Shown: positions 11,220 through 46,702 of the stretch, in pieces
Position numbering within the stretch: the first letter of the stretch is position 1
Layout: each line of letters begins with the position of its first letter
Source: an uncultured Bacteroidales bacterium
Lineage (GTDB): Bacteria; Bacteroidota; Bacteroidia; Bacteroidales; Bacteroidaceae
Direction: 5' to 3'
Length of the DNA: 64,000 nucleotides
NCBI GenBank assembly: GCA_902783885.1
Contig: CACZSQ010000073.1
Coordinates: 1,439 to 65,438, forward strand
The notes under the pieces: generated by a model
Told to the model about the DNA's origin: nothing
Seen by the model: only the letters and a program-made list of their open reading frames with translations
The model's database searches: none
Position numbers and translations under genes: made by a program

Positions 11220-11260
11220 TTATGCGAATTAATTTCAGAACAAGGATACACGGTTAATTT

Positions 11261-11344
11261 ATCAAGAATTAGAGAATTGGAGAATATTTCTCAAGATGCA
11301 ATACTCTGTCTTATGAATTGATGAGAATGAATAGAATGTCTTTT
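11261..11344 (+). repeat. 84-bp direct repeat R1, copy a
   Basis: atcaagaattagagaattggagaatatttctcaagatgcaatactctgtcttatgaattgatgagaatgaatagaatgtctttt is identical by eye to 11979-12063. Its first 18 nt recur inverted at about 11370-11388. Confidence 0.8.
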
Positions 11345-11408
11345 GCTTTGCAAAAGCTGGTAAAATCTTTAATTCTCTAATTCTTGATAATTGAAGTTTC
11401 GGATAAAA

Positions 11409-14024: not shown

Positions 14025-14283
14025 CACGAATTTCACGAATTTCACGAATTAGTTAAAATACATGTCCTATTGATATGATTCAATTTATATCGAATTTCAC
14101 GAATTCTTGGCGAAAGGCTTCGCGGCTTTCGAAGGACAAGCATCGGGTAGCTCCTTGGTTAGGTAACATTACGGCTTCACTCGGAGCCCCCCCCGCGTAG
14201 CGGCTCCGCTAAAATTCGTGAAATTCGTTATAATCAGCACTATGCGCCAGCCAAGAAATTTGTGTAATTCGTGAAATTCGTGG
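14025..14283. mobile_element. MITE-like element (~259 bp) whose terminal inverted repeats are tandem cacgaatt words
   Basis: The left end ccacgaatttcacgaatt is the exact reverse complement of the right end aattcgtgaaattcgtgg (14266-14283). The acatgtcctattgata core is shared with 10895 and 15358. The element has no coding capacity. Confidence 0.7.
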
Positions 14284-14328: not shown

Positions 14329-15348
14329 ATGTTGCGTATTATATTCATGGGCACACCGGAGTTCGCGGTGGAGAGCCTGAGGAAATTAGTTGAGAACAAG
14401 TACAACGTGGTGGCAGTGGTCACGATGCCCGACAAGCCGGTGGGGCGCCATCACGACACGTTGCAGGCATCGCCCGTCAAGCAATACGCGGTGGAGCACG
14501 GCATCCCCGTGCTGCAACCGGAGCGTCTGAAGGATGAGGCGTTTCTGGAGGAACTGCGCAGCTACCATGCCGACCTGCAGGTGGTCGTGGCCTTCAGGAT
14601 GCTGCCTGAGGTCGTGTGGGCCATGCCCCCGAAGGGGACCTTCAACCTCCATGCAGCGCTGCTGCCACAGTACCGCGGCGCAGCGCCCATCAACTGGGCA
14701 GTCATCAATGGCGAGACGGAGACGGGCGTGACGACGTTCTTCCTCGATCACGACATCGACACTGGACGCATCATCCATCGCGTGCCGGCACCCATCGGCG
14801 AGCGCGACACCGTAGGCGATGTCTATGAGCGGCTGATGAACCTCGGCGCCGACCTGGTGCTGAAAACCATCGATGAAATCGAAGCTGGTGACGTGCAGAC
14901 AACAGACCAGGAGGCTCTGATACAAGCATCAGCTGCAGAACAGGATTCTGCATCCGACAGCGCGGGTGTCCTACGCCCTGCGCCCAAGCTCACCCGCGAG
15001 AACACGCGCATCTGCTGGGCAGAACACACGGTGAAATCGGCTTACGACTTCATCCGTGGCCTGTCACCCTACCCCGCAGCATGGACCATCCTCCGCACCG
15101 CCGACGGCAAGGAGACACCGCTCAAGATCTATTTCGCCGAGAAAGTTTCTGAAGAAGAAGCCGCGCACATCAACGCAGAGCTGCAGCCACAGCCCCAATC
15201 TTCATTATTCATTATTCATTGTTCATTAGTTATCTCACTCCGCGACGGCTACCTGCGCCTCACCGACATCCAACTGGCAGGCAAGAAACGTATGCCCGCC
15301 AGCGACTTCCTGCGAGGCGCACACTTAGACGGTGCCACCCTCATCTGA
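14329..15348 (+). CDS. fmt: Methionyl-tRNA formyltransferase
   Basis: MLRIIFMGTPEFAV, VVTMPDKPVGR, FNLHAALLPQYRGAAPINWAVINGETETGVTTF and LAGKKRM are classic Fmt motifs. Confidence 0.9.
   Translation: MLRIIFMGTPEFAVESLRKLVENKYNVVAVVTMPDKPVGRHHDTLQASPVKQYAVEHGIPVLQPERLKDEAFLEELRSYHADLQVVVAFRMLPEVVWAMPPKGTFNLHAALLPQYRGAAPINWAVINGETETGVTTFFLDHDIDTGRIIHRVPAPIGERDTVGDVYERLMNLGADLVLKTIDEIEAGDVQTTDQEALIQASAAEQDSASDSAGVLRPAPKLTRENTRICWAEHTVKSAYDFIRGLSPYPAAWTILRTADGKETPLKIYFAEKVSEEEAAHINAELQPQPQSSLFIIHCSLVISLRDGYLRLTDIQLAGKKRMPASDFLRGAHLDGATLI
15201..15229 (+). repeat. 7-bp word array (ttcatta x4) inside fmt
   Basis: ttcattattcattattcattgttcatta encodes SSLFIIHCSLV in the Fmt C-terminal domain. Related aatgaa words occur intergenically at about 10868-10890 and 11320-11335. 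Confidence 0.6.
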
Positions 15349-15357
15349 CTCAAAGCA

Positions 15358-15462
15358 CCACGAATTTCACGAATTGCACGAATTACATGTCCTATTGATA
15401 TCATTCTAATAATCATAGGTATCAGCTTGCTAAGAAATTCGTGCAATTCGTGTAATTCGTGG
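15358..15462. mobile_element. Short MITE-like element (~105 bp), same family as 14025-14283
   Basis: The left end ccacgaatttcacgaattgcacgaatt is inverted at the right end aattcgtgcaattcgtgtaattcgtgg. It has the same acatgtcctattgata core and the same flanking tatagaaagaacat. It lies between the convergent fmt and xylanase genes. Confidence 0.7.
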
Positions 15463-15488
15463 TATAGAAAGAACATTCGATAGTTCAA

Positions 15489-31658: not shown

Positions 31659-31724
31659 CGCTTTTGCCATTGGTGGCAAATGCTTTTGCCATTGGTGGTA
31701 AATGCTTTTGCCATTGGTGGAAAA
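31659..31724. repeat. 3 x 22-bp tandem hairpin units
   Basis: cgcttttgccattggtggcaaa, tgcttttgccattggtggtaaa, tgcttttgccattggtggaaaa. tttgcca-ttgg-tggcaaa is a palindrome. The array starts 9 nt after the C10 stop. Confidence 0.85.
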
Positions 31725-31728
31725 ACCA

Positions 31729-31774
31729 AACACGTATATACGTTATTGCAAAAACGTATATACGTGTTTTTTTT
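31729..31774 (+). terminator. Rho-independent terminator (15-bp perfect stem plus T-run)
   Basis: aacacgtatatacgt - tattgcaaaa - acgtatatacgtgtt, followed by tttttt. Confidence 0.8.
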
Positions 31775-38700: not shown

Positions 38701-40382
38701 AACACTACCGCTACACACTCGACCGCGATTTCCTGCGTCGTGCCTTGCCCGCAATGCTCACAGCTGCACAATTCCTCAAAGATATCAGTACCAAGGCTAC
38801 CGACGGCACATACTTTGTTGCCGACGAATACTCACCTGAGCACGGGCCTTCCGGCCACTCCACGGCTTTTGCACAGCAGAACACCGCAGAGGTCGTGCGC
38901 AGCGTCATCGAAGGTGCCGAGGCATTAGGAACTGACTCTCCCATCTCCGCTACCGACCTACAGGAAATGCGCGACTTCTGGGAGGTGCTTGACAAGGGAC
39001 TCCACACCGAAATATATAATGGAAAGACCTGCTTAAGTGAATGGGCAGACCTCACGCTGAACTCACAAGGCGATGCCGCCGGTCACCGCCACCTCAGTCA
39101 CCTCATGGCCCTCTATCCTTATAGCCAAGTGTCTGCTTACGCCAAGGATGACGAAGGCAAACGACTCTACGAGGCGGCCGTGAACTCTCTGCTCGTGCGC
39201 AATGCCACCGACGTCACTGGTTGGTCTGGCGGATGGAAGGTGAATCTTTTCGCCCGCGCCCTGAAAGGAGACGATGCACGCGCTGTGTTCGCTCTCATGC
39301 TCAAGCATAGCAGGAGCTACGTCATCGCAATGTCGGGTCAAGGCGGTTGCTACTATAACCTCTGGGATGCCCATTCTCCCTTCCAGATCGACGGAAACTT
39401 TGGCTACACTTCCGGCGTAGCAGAGATGCTCCTGCAGAGTTATGATGGAGCTATCCACTTGTTGCCGGCACTGCCAACCGCATGGGCCAGCGGTAGCGTC
39501 AATGGCCTCAAAGCTGTGGGCGATTTCACCGTGGATCAGGCTTGGACAAACAGCAAGCTGACCTCTGCCACCATTACAAGTTGCAAAGGTCAAAAATGTA
39601 CCGTTAACTATCCTGGTATAGCCAAAGCCACAGTCACATACGCAGGCGAGCGCATTGCTGTCGAAGTGATTTCGGCTGATGAGATTGCCTTCGACACACA
39701 AGTTGGAGCCTCCTACGCCCTCGACATGCAGCACCTCACCATTCGCGAGAGCGACACCACACCGGCAACCGCTGCCGCTGGCGTCGATGTAACCCTTGAG
39801 CGCACGCTGGCTGCAAATGTCTGGCAGGGCTTCTCCATCCCTTTTGCCCTCACGGAGGAACAAATAGCTTCCTCCGCGCTGGCAGGAACTGATATTGTAG
39901 AGCTGACCAGCGAAGATGAGAACACGCTGAACTTCTCTGTTACTAAAGCCATCAGTGCTGGAATGCCATACTTCGTCCGTCCTATAGCCGATGTTGAGAA
40001 CCCTGAATTTAACGGAGTCAACATTACCGAACCGGAAGGAAAATCCGTTGACACAGGAACTTTCAGTTTCGTAGCACAGACCTACAAGAAAGTTCTGCCT
40101 ACTGACGGCTCTGTGGCCTATCTCAGCAAGGACACGGGCGCTCTGAAGAAGTTGACATCGGGAGGACTGTCAGGACTGCGTTCCTATTTTCTGCTGCCCA
40201 TAGGCGCAGAAGTCAAACTGATGATTAACGGCATTGAGACCGGCATCGGAAAGATTGACGGTAATCAGAATCTGCGAATGAACACAAAGCCTTGGTTCAC
40301 CCTCAGTGGTGCGCGCCTCAACGGACAGCCTACCCAGAAAGGAATCTATATCCAGCGCAGTAATAAGATGTTGGTTAAATAA
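35709..40382 (+). CDS. GH95 family glycoside hydrolase (alpha-L-fucosidase/galactosidase type) with a ~560-aa N-terminal extension and a T9SS-type tail
   Basis: LWYDFPA...[20 protein letters not shown]...LNEKTLYNG and [10 protein letters not shown]...[19 protein letters not shown] are GH95 signatures. Signal peptide [22 protein letters not shown] (ATG at 35709; the track start is a TTG at 35673). Ends [29 protein letters not shown]. Confidence 0.8.
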
Positions 40383-40402
40383 ATCTTAAATAAGGACCGA
40401 CT

Positions 40403-40579
40403 ATGAAGAAGACATATTTGTCACCCACTACAAACGGGTTGACCATCGAAGCACAATGCCAGCTCCTTGCCAACAGTTTCGTTGACAACAAGATCAACGT
40501 TGACACCTCCAAAATGGAAGGTGGCGACGGAAGCGATGGTGTAAAAGCAGATCGCAACTGGGATGATATTTGGGAATGA
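40403..40579 (+). CDS. Small conserved hypothetical protein (58 aa), paralogue of 6957..7160
   Basis: Below the ORF-track size cut-off. My translation is MKKTYLSPTTNGLTIEAQCQLLANSFVDNKINVDTSKMEGGDGSDGVKADRNWDDIWE. It starts 20 nt after the GH95 stop and is followed by a strong terminator. Confidence 0.5.
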   Translation: MKKTYLSPTTNGLTIEAQCQLLANSFVDNKINVDTSKMEGGDGSDGVKADRNWDDIWE

Positions 40580-40604
40580 TTGATAACATAAGCCCTAAAA
40601 GAAG

Positions 40605-40639
40605 AAGTCGGGAGCATTGTTCAGATGCTCCCGACTTTT
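40605..40639. terminator. Bidirectional hairpin terminator between the small ORF (+) and purL (-)
   Basis: aagtcgggagcat - tgttcag - atgctcccgactt, followed by tta. Confidence 0.7.
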
Positions 40640-40649
40640 ATTCTATCAC

Positions 40650-43600
40650 CTAAGCGTGTTCTTCGCACCACTTACGGGCGTTGACAAATGCCTCAATCCA
40701 AGGCGTAAGCTCATCACGGCTGCGGTTGGAAGGATAGAAAGCGCATTGCCAAGGGAAGATCGCACGTTCCAGGTGAGGCATCATCGCCAGATGACGGCCG
40801 TCAGCCGAGCAGAGGCCTGCCACGCTATAATCAGAACCATTGGGATTGCCAGGATATTCGTCGTAGCTGTACTTGGCCACCACATGATATGCGCTCTCGG
40901 GTTGCGGCAAATGGAACTTGCCCTCGCCGTGAGCCACCCAAATGCCGAGTTTGCTGCCAGCCAGAGAGCACAGCATCACGCTGTTGTTCTCAGGGATGGT
41001 GACGCCGAGGAAGGCGGACTCAAACTTGTGCGAAGTGTTGTGGAGCATTGTGGCCCCCCTTACGGCCCCCGAGGGGGCTTCTATTGTTTTGCTATTAGAG
41101 GACTTTACATCCGTGTCCCCCTCGGGGGATAACAGGGGGGCCAGCTCTAGGAGCCCCAACTCCACCATCAGCTGGCAGCCGTTACAGATACCGAGCGAAA
41201 GGGTGTCTGGACGAGCATAGAAGCGGTCGAGTGCTGCCTTGGCTTTGGGATTATACAGGAAGGCACCTGCCCACCCCTTCGCTGAGCCGAGGACGTCAGA
41301 GTTCGAGAAACCGCCGCAGAAGACAATCATCTGCACCTCATCCAGCGTCTCGCGGCCAGTAATGAGGTCGGTCATCATGACATCCTTCACGTCGAAGCCT
41401 GCAAGATAAAGGCTGTAGGCCATCTCGCGCTCACCATTCGTGCCTTTCTCACGGATGATGGCAGCACGAGGAGACCCAGCCCTCTGCCCCATACGAGGGA
41501 GGGAGATGGGGGTGGGTTTTATTTTCCACACGAGTGGCTGCTGCTTATAATTCTTATAGCGGGCATCAGCGCAGCCGTTCATGCTTTGCTTCGTATCGAG
41601 TTGATAGGAAGGACGATACCAGATGTCACGCAGTTCATCTATGTCAAGGGTTTCCTCAAAACCGCCCTTGCGGATGCGCAGCGAGCGTTCCCTTGCAGGT
41701 ACACCTATATATATATAGCCTACACCAGCCTCATCCATCAGCTTCTTGAATTCATCTTCGTGCTTGGTGCTGACCTGCACAACGACGCCAGGATTCTCGG
41801 CAAAGAGAATCTTCGTGATGTCCTCGCTTGCAAAATTGTTGAGATTCACTTTCATGCCACCCTTCGTATTGGCAAAGCACATCTCCAGAAGAGTGGTGAT
41901 GAGACCGCCGGCGCTGATGTCGTGTCCCGCCAGCAGCAAACCCTTCTTCACGCATTCCTGCACGGCATCAAAGGCATCGCGGAAATACTCAGGATTTGTG
42001 CACGTGGGCACATCTGAGCCCACTTTGCCATGAGCCTGGGCATAAGCGCTACCACCGAGGCGCAACTCGTCAAACGAGAAGTCGATATGATAGAGGGCAC
42101 TTTTGGGCTCGTCAGCCAGCACTGGGCTCACCACCTTGCGGATATCGCTGACCTCGCTACCGGAGGTGACGATGACGGTTCCAGGGGCAATAACCTTCGT
42201 GCCATCGGGATATTTCTGAGTCATGGAGAGGCTGTCCTTGCCTGTCGGGACATTGATTTCCAAAGCACAGCAGAATTCGGAGAGCGCTTCAACAGCTTTA
42301 TACAAGCGGGCGTCCTCACCCTTCTGTGAGCGGCACGGCCACATCCAGTTGGCACTGAGGCTGACGCTGTCAAGGCCTTCAGCCAACGGTGCCCACACGA
42401 TATTCGTCAAGCTCTCAGCCACAGAGAGGACAGAGCCTGCTGCGGGGTCTGCAAGGCCTGCCTGCGGGGCATGGCCCAAGGCGGTAGCGATACCCTTGCG
42501 CCCCTGATAGTCAAGGGCAACGACACCGCAATCCGACAGCGGCAGTTGCAGTTCGCCCTGGCACTGCTGGCGTGCCACCTTGCCCGTCACCGAGCGATCG
42601 ACCTTGTTCGTCAGCCAATCTTTGCAGGCAACAGCTTCGAGCGAGAGAACGCTCTCTATCATAGGCCCAATGGGGCTCATGGGGCTTATAGGATATTCAA
42701 CAGGCTGGTATTTACGCTCGACGGTCTCATCGACCATCACCGTCTTAGGCGAATGGCCGAACATCTGAGCCACGTCAAGGTCGAAGGGGCGAACGCCGTC
42801 GGCCTGTTCGAATGCGAAATGGGCATCGCCCGTGGTCTCACCGACGACATAAAGCGGAGCACGTTCGCGCTCAGCAATCTTGCGCACATGGTCGAGATGC
42901 TCTTCCTGAATGAGCAGTCCCATGCGCTCCTGGCTCTCGTTGGCAATAATCTCTTTGCTGGAGAGCGTAGGGTCGCCGATAGGGAGCTTTGACATATCAA
43001 TGAGTCCGCCGCACTCCTCCACCAGCTCGCTGAGGCAGTTGACGTGGCCTGCCGAACCGTGGTCGTGAATGCTGACGATGGGATTCACATCCTCTTCGCA
43101 CAAAGAGCGAACAAGGTTGTAGGCGCGCTTCTGCATCTCGGGGTTGGCTCGCTGGACAGCATTCAGCTCGATGCCGCTGCTGTAGCGACCTGTATCCACG
43201 CTGGACACAGAGCCTCCACCCAAGCCGATGCGGTAGTTGTCACCGCCAACGACGACAATCTTATTGCCCTTCTCAGGTGTGCCCTTCAAACAGTCGCGTT
43301 TGGTGCCATACCCCACGCCGCCTGCCAGCATGATGACCTTGTCGTAGCCATACTGCTCACCATTCTCTTCATGTTCGAAGGTGAGCACAGAGCCTGTTAT
43401 CAGCGGCTGACCGAACTTATTGCCGAAGTCGCTGGCTCCGTTGGAAGCCTTGATGAGAATCTGTTCAGGGGTCTGATAAAGCCATTTGCGAGGAGCCATC
43501 CCCTGCCCATCAAGGGCTAGGGGCTTCGGATAGGAAGTCATGTACACCGCCGTTCCGGCAATAGGCCATGAACCGACGCCACCGCCCATGCGGTCACGGA

Positions 43601-44417
43601 TTTCTCCGCCCGTGCCTGTGGAGGCTCCGTTGAAAGGTTCCACCGTCGTAGGGAAGTTGTGTGTCTCGGCCTTAATGCTGATGACACTCTCAATCTCCTT
43701 CACGCGGAACCAGTCGCTGGTGGAGTGGTCGGCAGGAGCGAACTGCTCCACGACAGGCCCCTCAGCAAAAGCCACATTATCTTTATAAGCAGAGATGATC
43801 TTGTGGGGGTTCTCCTGCGTCGTGCGCTTAATCATCTGGAAAAGGCTGCTGGGCATCTCCTTGCCGTCGATGATGAACGTGCCGCCGAAGATCTTGTGGC
43901 GGCAGTGCTCGCTGTTGATCTGAGCGAAGCCAAACACCTCGCTGTCCGTGAGCTTGCGTCCGAGCTGCCCCTCCACCTTGTGCAGGTATTCTATTTCCTC
44001 GGGCGAGAGCGCCAAGCCTTCCTGCTCGTTGTACTCCTCCAGATTCTCAATCGTCAGAATAGGAGCCGGCTCAATATCCACCGTGAAAATATTCTGGTCG
44101 AGCCCGTCGTACAGGCGCTGAAGCATAGGATCGTAATCCTCTCCCCCACGGGGAGAGTTAGAGAGGGGCCAATATTCCTCTATTCTCTGGATACCCTGAA
44201 TGGCCATGTTCTGGGTGATTTCCACAGCGTTGGTGCTCCAAGGGGTTATCATCTCGCGACGAGGTCCTACGAACCGCCCGTCGATTGCCTGGACTTCCAA
44301 GAACGTGGCATCGCCGTAGAGCCAGCAAAGTTTCTGAATATCCTCAGCGGTGAGCTGACGGCCTGCCTGAGTGGCGATAATGGACTGCTGCGGAGTCCTG
44401 AAAAAGAATATAGCCAT
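40650..44417 (-). CDS. purL: Phosphoribosylformylglycinamidine synthase, single-chain large form
   Basis: 1255 aa. [41 protein letters not shown] and the C-terminal amidotransferase GICNGCQLM ... HNTSHKFES ... AHGEG. I moved the start to [11 protein letters not shown] (ATG at 44417), downstream of the promoter motif. Confidence 0.9.
   Translation of the reverse strand: [1255 protein letters not shown]
41052..41142. mobile_element. ~90-bp palindromic (MITE/RPE-like) element in frame within the purL amidotransferase domain
   Basis: The left end ggcccccct tac ggcccccgagggggc and the right end gtccccctcgggggat aac aggggggcc are inverted copies. The segment encodes about [30 protein letters not shown], between [17 protein letters not shown] and [12 protein letters not shown]. 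Confidence 0.6.
42658..42693. repeat. 4 units of the 9-bp CNTATRRGG word, in frame inside purL
   Basis: atcataggc ccaatgggg ctcatgggg cttatagga. It encodes [12 protein letters not shown], a different reading frame of the word from the helicase copy. Confidence 0.75.
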
Positions 44418-44458
44418 TATATATGAGATATTTATGTGTCTGGTGGTTATTTTGTGCG

Positions 44459-44466
44459 CAAAGATA
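44459..44466 (-). promoter_or_regulatory. -7 promoter motif (TAtcTTTG on minus strand)
   Basis: Plus-strand caaagata, 42 nt upstream of the purL ATG at 44417. Confidence 0.5.
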
Positions 44467-44562
44467 CGGTTAAAAAGTGAGAAAAACACACGGACACGGC
44501 GGTTTTTGGGCGGAAAAAGGAAAAAAAACGATGAATTGTTTGGAGTGAAACTCATTTTAACA

Positions 44563-44570
44563 TACCTTTG
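44563..44570 (+). promoter_or_regulatory. -7 promoter motif TAccTTTG
   Basis: 46 nt upstream of the ATG at 44616. Confidence 0.5.
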
Positions 44571-44615
44571 CGCCTATAAGTATTAATTTTTTTAATCATT
44601 AACACTTCTCTTCCT

Positions 44616-45404
44616 ATGAAAAAAATCTCCTCTTGCATCGTTCTGTTGCTGATGATTACCAGCAGCGCGAAGGCACAGTACGTAGATGACAACATGCTCT
44701 TCAACCATCTTGGTGCTAGTGTTTCGTTGGGTCTTGACGGTATCGGCATCGAAGTCTCCACGACTGCTACACAATGGGCAGGTGTTCGTGCGGGTATCAG
44801 CTTCTTCCCGAACATCTCTTACAGCCTTAGCGACATTAACTATAAACGCCACAACAAAGATGGTAAGTTAGGTCTGGATGCCACATTCAAGAAAGTCGAT
44901 GGTAAGATCCTCATTGACGGTTATCCTTTTGGTTCGAAGTCATCTTTCCACATTACCGCAGGTCTGTTCTTCGGTAACAGCGAATTCTTGACTGTTGACT
45001 TGAAGGAAGATCCCAATGTACCCATCGATGGTGGTATTGTTCCACCTGCGGACCGCAACCCCATCGGTTATGCCATTGACCCTGATGAGAACGGTATTAT
45101 CAAACTTCGCATGAAGTACAACAGCGTCAAGCCATACATCGGTATCGGTATCGGTCGTGCTGTTCCCAAGGCTGGCAAGCGCATAGCTGTCGCAGCAGAC
45201 CTCGGCGTGCAGTTCCATGGAACTCCGAAGGTACAAGCCTATTCACCTGAAGGCACTGGCTGGATGGACATTGAAGCTGAAGACTTCTATAGCATTGTGG
45301 AGAAAGAGAAGGATCAGGAAGACATCAAAGATGCTTTCGACATCATCGAAAAGGTTAAAGTATGGCCTGTCCTGAACATCCGTATCACAGGTCGTATTTT
45401 CTAA
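44616..45404 (+). CDS. Putative outer-membrane beta-barrel protein
   Basis: Signal peptide MKKISSCIVLLLMITSSAKAQ. Alternating beta-strand pattern. C-terminal ...NIRITGRIF with a terminal Phe, typical of OMPs. Confidence 0.55.
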   Translation: MKKISSCIVLLLMITSSAKAQYVDDNMLFNHLGASVSLGLDGIGIEVSTTATQWAGVRAGISFFPNISYSLSDINYKRHNKDGKLGLDATFKKVDGKILIDGYPFGSKSSFHITAGLFFGNSEFLTVDLKEDPNVPIDGGIVPPADRNPIGYAIDPDENGIIKLRMKYNSVKPYIGIGIGRAVPKAGKRIAVAADLGVQFHGTPKVQAYSPEGTGWMDIEAEDFYSIVEKEKDQEDIKDAFDIIEKVKVWPVLNIRITGRIF

Positions 45405-46526: not shown

Positions 46527-46702
46527 GTGAAGGATGAATCCTTATGGCGAGAAGATTTAAACCTTATCGGCAGAAGGATTAAACCTTATGGGCAGAGGAT
46601 TTATATCTTACGGTATGAAGATGCGGGTCTTACGGCTTGAAGATATAGGTCTTCAGGCCTGAAGACCTGCATCTTCTGCCATGAAGACCTGCACCTTAGA
46701 AC
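46527..46702. repeat. Tandem array of 8 x ~22-bp hairpin-forming units (gaaga-N-tctt family)
   Basis: gtgaaggatgaatccttatggc, gagaagatttaaaccttatcggc, agaaggattaaaccttatgggc, agaggatttatatcttacggt, atgaagatgcgggtcttacggc, ttgaagatataggtcttcaggc, ctgaagacctgcatcttctgcc, atgaagacctgcaccttagaac. The last unit supplies the stop codon of 46696..47037. Confidence 0.8.

Follow-up and report, generated by a model that had tools for sequence, protein, structure and literature searches.

In this study, we analysed a 64,000-nt stretch of DNA from an uncultured Bacteroidales bacterium (contig CACZSQ010000073.1 of assembly GCA_902783885.1; the whole stretch is called the window below) and examined a 93-nt palindromic segment that lies in frame within its purL gene. 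With a probability of about 0.8, this segment represents one member of a dispersed, non-autonomous family of nested palindromes that occurs in ruminant-gut Bacteroidales of the Prevotella group and resembles the Rickettsia palindromic elements (RPEs). Among the matches listed, unrelated genes of 56 assemblies contain at least 124 copies that share its ends, and nearly all copy-bearing assemblies are metagenome-assembled genomes (MAGs) from rumen, omasum or abomasum that are named Prevotella, Prevotellaceae or Bacteroidaceae. A sequence-only reading of the window had attributed to the segment the architecture of a MITE (a transposable element of the miniature inverted-repeat type) or an RPE. 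The RPE likeness held, as the family is dispersed and in frame; a MITE in the strict sense was less well supported, as neither target-site duplication nor parent element was seen. That reading had proposed a search for further copies: none other lies in the 64-kb window, but the related genomes hold many, and the combination that would have spoken against it, namely no other copies together with an equivalent loop in unrelated PurL, was not what we found.

Dispersal of the family

The census pattern CCCCCGAGGGGG-N20-50-CCCCCTCGGGGG, which holds only the inner palindromes of the element, was searched in 596 Gb of species-representative genomes. Perfect inner palindromes were required, and all copy counts are lower bounds. 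At least 119 stretches of 8 kb matched, versus about 0.1 expected by chance according to our own calculation; one Sphingomonadaceae and one Alloprevotella match had a different architecture. At least 10 copies were present in a single genome, RUG13587. Near-identical copies were found in unrelated genes of one genome (0/87 differences in UBA3837 and 1/93 in RUG12065), and the core subtype of the window's copy is also present in UxuA (mannonate dehydratase) and in a YfhO-like membrane protein of JGI metagenomes. These two observations indicate that the element has been copied to new loci. A phmmer search with the 31-residue peptide against 1.84 billion representatives, which was underpowered, gave three matches; only P0268 is a true copy, and the other two are unrelated repeat proteins.

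The sequence shared by the family can be written as R-GCCCCCC(C)-[T(A/T)C-type spacer]-CCCCCGAGGGGG-variable core-CCCCCTCGGGGG-[spacer]-(G)GGGGGGC-Y. In the anchored end profile, R-GCCCCCC(C/T)-T(A/T)C(G/T)(G/T)-CCCCCGAGGGGG-C/A-T/C-A/T-C-(T)ATAG is strongly conserved, and conservation falls sharply 14-15 nt outside the inner palindrome. The base just beyond the outer run covaries between the two ends (A..T 46 and G..C 17 versus A..C 9 and G..T 16), while pairing at positions further outside is no more frequent than independence predicts.

Two rival explanations can be judged from these data. The segment might be an ordinary expansion of a PurL loop by duplication or slippage, with a palindromy that is coincidental; the length of this loop does vary among PurLs (long in human PFAS, short in Salmonella), and the window holds a single copy. 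However, the same 27-nt ends recur in the copies of unrelated genes, single genomes contain identical copies, and shuffle controls reject chance. We therefore consider this explanation highly improbable; the multi-copy census and the identical copies within genomes refute it. An assembly or binning artefact, such as a chimeric contig or a collapsed repeat, has to be considered because all data come from MAGs, but its probability is negligible: the same PurL with its insert is found in 11 cluster members from ENA, NCBI and JGI assemblies and also in independent JGI metagenome contigs, and in every case the open reading frame (ORF) is intact and the insert in frame.

Structure of the element in purL

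A repeat search confirmed the G/C-rich ends and AT-richer core of the roughly 90-bp inverted-repeat palindrome described in the sequence-only reading. The two arms (Table 1), each 27 nt long and separated by 39 nt, show 81% complementarity, and their GC content is 74-81% versus 36% in the core. The family hidden Markov model (HMM), built from 124 copies, matches the window at 41052-41142 (E = 1.9e-19), which is exactly the span proposed in that reading. Each arm consists of three parts: an outer run (TGGCCCCCC or GGGGGGCCA), a spacer of 5-6 nt, and an inner 12-mer (CCCCCGAGGGGG or CCCCCTCGGGGG) that is near-palindromic itself. Within the window, CCCCCTCGGGGG occurs exactly only at the arms, at 41066-41077 on the minus strand and 41117-41128 on the plus strand; a third site with one mismatch lies at 14626, making three matches versus 0.23 expected, a number reached in 0/100 shuffles. 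The predicted RNA fold of 41045-41150 (minus strand) has an energy of -57 kcal/mol (z = -6.4, with 0/200 shuffles equally stable), and the DNA fold of the same segment has z = -5.4. The shuffle controls reject a chance origin of the hairpin. Terminal inverted repeats, a preserved frame and the lack of a coding capacity of its own, all noted earlier, agree with a 93-nt element that makes up 31 codons of an intact ORF; the translation of 41144-41052 (minus strand) is LAPLLSPEGDTDVKSSNSKTIEAPSGAVRGA, bounded by GICNGCQLMVELGLLE and TMLHNTSHKFES.

Table 1. Positions of the element, its parts, its host gene and a second small palindrome in the window
Feature	Position	Strand	Description
Whole element, nested palindrome, 93 nt	41051-41143	-	Codon-aligned 41052-41144; 31 PurL codons
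5' arm of coding strand, B-type end	41117-41143	-	TGGCCCCCC-TGTTAT-CCCCCGAGGGGG; peptide APLLSPEG
3' arm of coding strand, A-type end	41051-41077	-	CCCCCTCGGGGG-CCGTAA-GGGGGGCCA; peptide APSGAVRGA
Variable core, 39 nt	41078-41116	-	Peptide DTDVKSSNSKTIE
Host gene, large single-chain PurL (phosphoribosylformylglycinamidine (FGAM) synthase), 1255 aa, intact	40650-44417	-	ORF; Pfam domains of homologues
Mini-hairpin CTCTCCCCGTGGGGGAGAG, 19-nt near-perfect palindrome	44139-44157 (context 44115-44183)	-	PurL N-terminal region; peptide PLSNSPRGGE in WPLSNSPRGGEDYDP

Fit to coding sequence

Among the 124 copies, 118 lie within open frames that measure at least 150 codons from stop to stop (the longest 1997), compared with 87% of random 93-nt windows from the same loci (p = 0.002). 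Thus, no depletion of the element from genes is seen, and this is uncommon among mobile elements. The frame relative to the element is the same in 109/118 intragenic copies (p = 2e-41), and the length of the core is a multiple of 3 in 111/124 copies (27, 30, 33, 36, 39 or 45 nt; p = 8e-39). This frame is free of stop codons on both strands (116/124 and 114/124), and stops are usual in the other two frames. Being palindromic and divisible by three in length, the element has one frame open on both strands, and the peptide AP-x3-PEG...(A/S)PSG-x3-GA is accordingly specified by either orientation. The 20 hosts examined represent 19 protein families, mostly conserved enzymes, including MutS2, topoisomerase, pyruvate formate-lyase (PFL), GcvP, CTP synthase, GMP synthase (GuaA), AlaRS, MetRS, BipA, a fucokinase-type enzyme, a nonribosomal peptide synthetase (NRPS)-like protein, UxuA, an outer-membrane protein, and glycoside hydrolases of families GH31, GH94 and GH97. 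The PurL of another species, with a copy at a different site, is also among these hosts. Constraints on frame, length and stop codons would be pointless if the insert were removed from the RNA or the protein, and we therefore infer, in a straightforward manner, that it is translated as part of the host protein.

These features suggest how the family may persist. Copies are made and inserted at new chromosomal places, as the identical copies in unrelated genes of one genome show. An insertion in the open frame within a permissive surface loop would leave the host protein functional, so that the copy persists, and other insertions would presumably be purged. The encoded peptide is rich in Pro, Ser, Gly and Ala and hydrophilic in either orientation. 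Decay proceeds by in-frame internal deletion between direct C-runs to short Pro/Gly scars, as shown by one PurL lineage described below.

Filled, empty and scarred alleles in PurL relatives

A total of 120 PurL cluster representatives (77-99% identical; lengths 1217-1374 aa), all from uncultured Bacteroidaceae or Prevotella-group MAGs, were aligned. In most relatives (77-90% identical), the loop at the insert position comprises 7-9 residues, GLLGYKSGEKMLHN and variants, for example GLL-GYKSGEK-MLHN and NLL-GLKGNEK-MLHN. A loop longer by 26 residues is present in the window's PurL, P0001-P0004 and P0006, and P0013 has the same arms with a shorter and diverged core. The sequence-only reading had counted about 30 extra residues; 31 codons are indeed translated, but the net gain relative to the closest element-free relatives is 26 residues. 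The comparison of PurL orthologues that it had proposed showed that most relatives are short-looped and that a single cluster can be both filled and empty: in the 90%-identity cluster of P0006, 12 members are filled and one (P0133) is empty. Judged from these aligned sequences, the element is an insertion relative to the close PurL relatives.

At the DNA level, the filled allele is ...CTT-GAAGTG-[GCCCCCC...GGGGGGC]-CGCT-ATG, and the empty allele (loci L124 and L001) is ...CT-GGGCTACAAGAGCGGCGAAAA(A/G)-ATG. A scar was recognized in locus L123 (P0034), where CTGGCCCCC|GCGGGGGCCGTAAGGGGGGCCAC equals the intact element of the metagenome contigs L128/L134 minus 54 nt; the deletion lies between two direct GCCCCC runs. 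Locus L122 (P0007) retains only a degenerate right arm. A clean empty site in UxuA was considered and rejected, as the closest 'empty' allele (L138) resembles a degenerate solo arm, i.e. a scar. In the same locus (that of P0150), GGCCACTTTCTGCTTCCCCGAAGGGGT...AGGTGAGGGTC codes for F-x-F-P-E-G-V-G-E-G, a loop that is widespread in UxuA. This DNA is similar to a left arm in degenerate form together with a right outer run, and what looks like an ordinary conserved loop may be an ancient scar.

Structural setting of the insert

The PurL ORF is uninterrupted from stop to stop over 40650-44555 (minus strand, 1301 codons), and translation probably begins at the Met at 44417. The frame is open for another 46 codons (44418-44555, minus strand; MSFTPNNSSFFFLFPPKN...) upstream of this conserved start, MAIFFF, and two cluster members are annotated as the 1301-aa form; this upstream extension is probably untranslated. 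The domains of PurL homologues are FGAR-AT_N, a linker, two AIRS_C, a PurM_N-like domain and GATase_5. The insert is located in the C-terminal GATase_5 domain and begins 14 residues past the GICNGCQ nucleophile motif. Over its C-terminal 316 residues, the protein matches human PFAS (9N9W, E = 4e-66) as well as Salmonella PurL (1T3T, E = 5e-44). Salmonella PurL has only about 10 residues at the insert position, consistent with the short spacing that had been noted for E. coli PurL, and the loop of human PFAS is about 10 residues shorter than that of the window. The long loop in human PFAS and the short one in Salmonella imply that this position is naturally permissive of length variation.

An AlphaFold2 model was computed for the C-terminal 296 residues from a 49-sequence alignment (mean predicted local distance difference test (pLDDT) score 78; predicted template modelling (pTM) score 0.81). 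The amidotransferase fold was modelled with confidence, and its TM score was 0.73-0.76 to 9N9W and 1T3T. Model residues 134-160, the 27 central residues of the insert, form a coil with pLDDT < 50, placed after the helix 120-127 that begins at the catalytic Cys motif and before the next strand. Modelling of this domain, also suggested in the sequence-only reading, thus returned a low-pLDDT coil within an otherwise PurL-like domain. The insert probably forms a disordered protrusion that enlarges a variable loop past the nucleophile-elbow helix. On this model, which covers PurL only, the loop position fits the host fold as expected of an RPE-like element.

Conservation beyond the host gene

The intact copies were found to be more conserved than the genes that carry them. 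Between the window and locus L002, the PurL DNA is 82% identical (60% at third codon positions) versus 95% for the element, in which 30/31 third positions are the same, a value in the top 0.2% of 31-codon windows; the tract of high identity stops exactly at the element borders. Orthologous sites in different species provided 14 pairs of copies, whose identities fell into two groups (a bimodal distribution). In 7/14 pairs, the element was 94-100% identical, including the core, and the 300-nt flanks were 72-93% identical. In the other 7/14 pairs, the arms were kept (80-94% identical), and the cores differed in length and were 47-63% identical. The requirement for perfect palindromes inflates the identity of the arms; the identity of the cores and the comparison of the window with L002 are unaffected. 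Neither pattern is predicted by simple vertical descent with neutral drift. The strong conservation of intact copies hints at selection or re-templating, which a simple selfish-DNA model does not foresee. Purifying selection on the nucleic acid and the repeated overwriting of resident copies from other copies via the conserved arms are candidate causes.

REP/BIME elements bind gyrase or IHF. By analogy, the hairpin could be a functional nucleic-acid element under site-wise selection, either an mRNA structure with an influence on translation, folding or stability, or a protein-bound DNA site, with mobility being only the way in which it arrived. The identity of the element above that of PurL as a whole, the seven nearly identical orthologous pairs, the very stable predicted structure (-57 kcal/mol) and the covariation of the outermost pair are all consistent with such a role. 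On the other hand, the host genes and positions are heterogeneous, the cores vary widely and differ in half of the orthologous pairs, the spacers of the two arms are hardly ever complementary, no Rfam family matches, copies have been deleted in some lineages that retain the gene, and the statistics of frame and length point to selection on the translated product. We regard this explanation as quite unlikely.

Ends, orientation and mobilisation

The two ends of the element are systematically different, and no more than 3/97 copies have complementary spacers in their two arms; on this count, a hairpin-templated origin of the arms was rejected. About 83% of the intragenic copies have the A-type end (...AAG-CCCCCTCGGGGG-CCGTA-GGGGGGGC) on the 3' side of the sense strand, and orientation relative to the host gene is biased approximately 5:1. 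In the 941 kb of DNA flanking the elements, 133 paired arms were found versus 22 solo arms. The census pattern gave no match in 2.9 million viral contigs, and phages were rejected as the vector on this basis.

Several observations weigh against an RPE-like mobile family, or limit what can be concluded about it. The HMM found only one copy in the 64-kb window. No direct repeat of 2-8 nt was enriched at any boundary offset beyond the conserved ends in 121 copies, so that the target-site duplications that the sequence-only reading had thought of looking for are not in evidence. No long copy with the same ends (arm pairs more than 160 nt apart) was detected in the 941 kb around the elements, and the 25 Pfam families listed (of 41 that matched the window ORFs) include no transposase; in the DNA so covered, an autonomous parent element is not in evidence. 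The empty PurL allele differs from the filled one by replacement of a loop segment of 21-22 nt and not by a clean insertion, and neither the PurL (L124, L001) nor the UxuA (L138) alleles define a virgin target site. The intact copies are far more conserved than host synonymous sites, contrary to what is expected of junk DNA. The proportions in the census describe well-preserved copies only, an ascertainment bias, and the translation of the insert is deduced from frame statistics.

The lack of target-site duplication, the two end types, the strong orientation bias and the different cores at the same site make a single-stranded DNA (ssDNA) mechanism that recognises the hairpin (of the IS200/IS605 type or that of repetitive extragenic palindromes (REPs) and their RAYT transposases), or copying by arm homology, likelier than cut-and-paste DDE transposition. 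A more far-reaching view, which we put forward tentatively, is that of an active and directional nested-palindrome system in rumen Prevotella-group bacteria, specifically adapted to coding sequence. Such a system would have fixed landing loops in housekeeping enzymes, re-templating via the arms and conservation at the nucleotide level, possibly a hairpin-recognising ssDNA enzyme, and several sister families that have the termini GGCCCC...GGGGCC in common and compete for codon positions. Re-templating at landing loops would explain both the identical elements in diverged genes and the differing cores at orthologous sites.

Relation to known palindromic elements

RPE-1 to RPE-10 are small palindromic repeats in Rickettsia (Ogata et al. 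2000, as summarised in PMC10969869 and PMC3733652). Like them, the present family consists of dispersed palindromes that are found in frame in unrelated, often essential genes, encode a conserved, tolerated and probably translated peptide, and have no transposase of their own. It differs in that RPEs belong to Alphaproteobacteria with reduced intracellular genomes, whereas its members occur in Bacteroidota that are free-living gut anaerobes. Its elements are 81-99 nt long, compared with about 100-150 nt for RPEs, and form a G/C-rich nested double palindrome; the core varies in steps of 3, and 95% of the sampled copies are intragenic. RPEs are mostly old and diverged, whereas intact copies of this family are nearly identical across species. 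As the two differ in phylum, base composition and length, homology at the sequence level to RPE-1 to RPE-10 is very unlikely.

The family also shares traits with bacterial MITEs (Correia, ERIC, Nezha, Coxiella QMITE1 and cyanobacterial elements; PMC10969869), namely a size in the range of <100-300 bp, terminal inverted repeats, multiple copies and no transposase ORF, and MITEs occasionally form in-frame fusions with host ORFs (PMC10969869, PMC5896051). However, MITEs are mainly intergenic and this family is mainly intragenic, without target-site duplication and with no parent insertion sequence seen in the 941 kb of flanking DNA. No Rfam 15 covariance model matched positions 40000-45000 of the window at E <= 1. 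In the sequences searched, no target-site duplication, autonomous parent, phage copy or Rfam match was found, which supports the assignment as RPE-like and not as a classical MITE.

Traits in common with REPs, bacterial interspersed mosaic elements (BIMEs) and REPINs are G/C-rich imperfect palindromes, inverted doublets that give a long hairpin, no target-site duplication, homogeneity within genomes, and occasional intragenic copies (PMC3733652). The element might accordingly be of the REPIN type, with two inverted REP-like units that are mobilised and maintained by a single-copy RAYT (Y1 tyrosine transposase) and have spilled into coding regions. Its G/C-rich near-palindromic arms stand in inverted orientation on either side of a short core, like the units of REP doublets; the distinct end types and the orientation bias, together with the missing duplications, would fit strand-specific ssDNA transposition; about half of the arms carry CC-GTAG-GGGGGGC; and intragenic REPs are documented in some genomes (PMC3733652). 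We nevertheless consider this origin rather unlikely. The spacer is TAC in 109/242 ends and TTC in 116/242, so that GTAG is unconserved, and the tag is located 3' of the inner stem, opposite to classical REPs; membership of the GTAG-tagged REPs was rejected because the tag is unconserved. In addition, REPs are overwhelmingly extragenic, in contrast to the 95% of sampled copies that are intragenic here, and no Y1 transposase was seen in the 64-kb window and the 8-kb snippets. Thus, in comparison with REPs, BIMEs and REPINs, the present family has no tag (GTAG or CGTC) that is conserved, is adapted to the reading frame and is almost exclusively intragenic.

Sister families and other repeats

At about six hot spots, the PurL relatives (P0001-P0144) contain other in-frame palindromic inserts of at least eight sequence families, and apparently some 8-10 sister families exist in essential enzymes of this clade. 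Their peptides include PLSNSPRGGE...LPPTGGAGRGA, TPNPSR.GGE...PLP.G.RG.GVGLP, SDEGLGFMDEG...PSTLNPHPSTMK, IHNSQFTIHNE...IMNYELSIMNS and TNDELRMTNDE...SSFVTRHSSL. Some of the sister families are AT-rich, with arms of tandem 8-9-mers. Members of one 90% PurL cluster are mosaics of filled and empty sites of these families. In the locus of P0011 (L141), a 120-nt element of the first sister family (TGGCCCCTCTCTAACTCCCCCCGTGGGGGGGAG...CTCCCCCCCACGGGGGGAGCAGGGAGAGGGGCC, -95 kcal/mol) occupies the same codon position as the window's element and has the same layout of outer repeat, spacer and inner self-palindrome, with the same termini GGCCCC...GGGGCC. This likeness suggests a superfamily, or a shared machinery or site.

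The window's PurL probably contains remnants of the sister families. At the site of the mini-hairpin (Table 1), relatives have either FPVANAEAEHDP or a full insert of 40 residues (WPLSDSPRGGE...ALPPTGGAGEGL), and the mini-hairpin looks like a solo arm or scar of the PLSNSPRGGE family. Three other PurL loops, at 43473-43541, 42636-42719 and 41454-41528 (minus strand; KPLALDGQGM, YPISPMSPIGPM and TPISLPRMGQRAGSP), exceed those of the nearest relatives by 3-7 residues. Their DNA shows short C-run/G-run or AAGCCCC repeats, and they are located at hot spots of full inserts; they are possibly decayed elements. In many relatives, the PurL C-terminus runs past the position of the window's ...CEEHA stop (alignment columns 1680-1709), with tails such as KTPSPLPLVGGE and THPQPLP. 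It looks as if downstream palindromic elements overlap or replace the stop codon in these cases. Another sister family, in which the inner palindrome reads CCCCCAAGGGGG / CCCCCTTGGGGG and the outer runs are similar, was observed at L002 7823, L087 6383 and L104 2560-2597; the L002 copy starts at a TAA stop codon, and L104 has two adjacent arms.

Other repeats are located between genes of the window. Intergenic inverted repeats at 14025-14282 and 15357-15463, with arms of the tandem 9-mer CACGAATTT (10 matches versus 0 expected), bracket a formyltransferase-like ORF (14329-15348) and are MITE-like; they are probably related to the AT-rich in-frame families of the PurL relatives. Long inverted repeats with arms of 26-40 nt are present in intergenic gaps at 2806-2880, 11254-11395, 46618-46697 and 31723-31774. 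The repeat at 46618-46697 consists of abutting 40-nt arms with GAAGACCTGCATCTTC-type subrepeats, and that at 31723-31774 ends in a T-run and is terminator-like.

Significance

In-frame palindromic 'selfish DNA' in protein genes has hitherto been regarded as a speciality of Rickettsia. A 2024 review of MITEs still singles out the RPEs and names neither Prevotella nor any Bacteroidetes. Our literature search found RPEs, intragenic REPs and Coxiella QMITEs, and no such element described for Prevotella or rumen Bacteroidales. The family reported here is new: it combines a nested G/C-rich palindrome, a core quantised in steps of 3 nt, a frame open on both strands, two end types with an orientation bias, and high conservation.

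In sum, the family resides in essential enzymes of a genus that ranks among the most abundant in the rumen. Insert-derived sequence separates orthologues by up to about 150 residues, and this variation affects orthologue clustering, quality checks of MAGs, protein-language and structure models, and strain typing. The inserts provide a natural experiment on which protein loops tolerate insertions of 30 residues, and a tractable case of a mobile element made compatible with translation on both strands. Another question they raise is what makes intact copies slower to evolve than the surrounding synonymous sites. If a re-templating system is indeed at work, it would be a general generator of loop diversity in the core proteins of a dominant gut genus.

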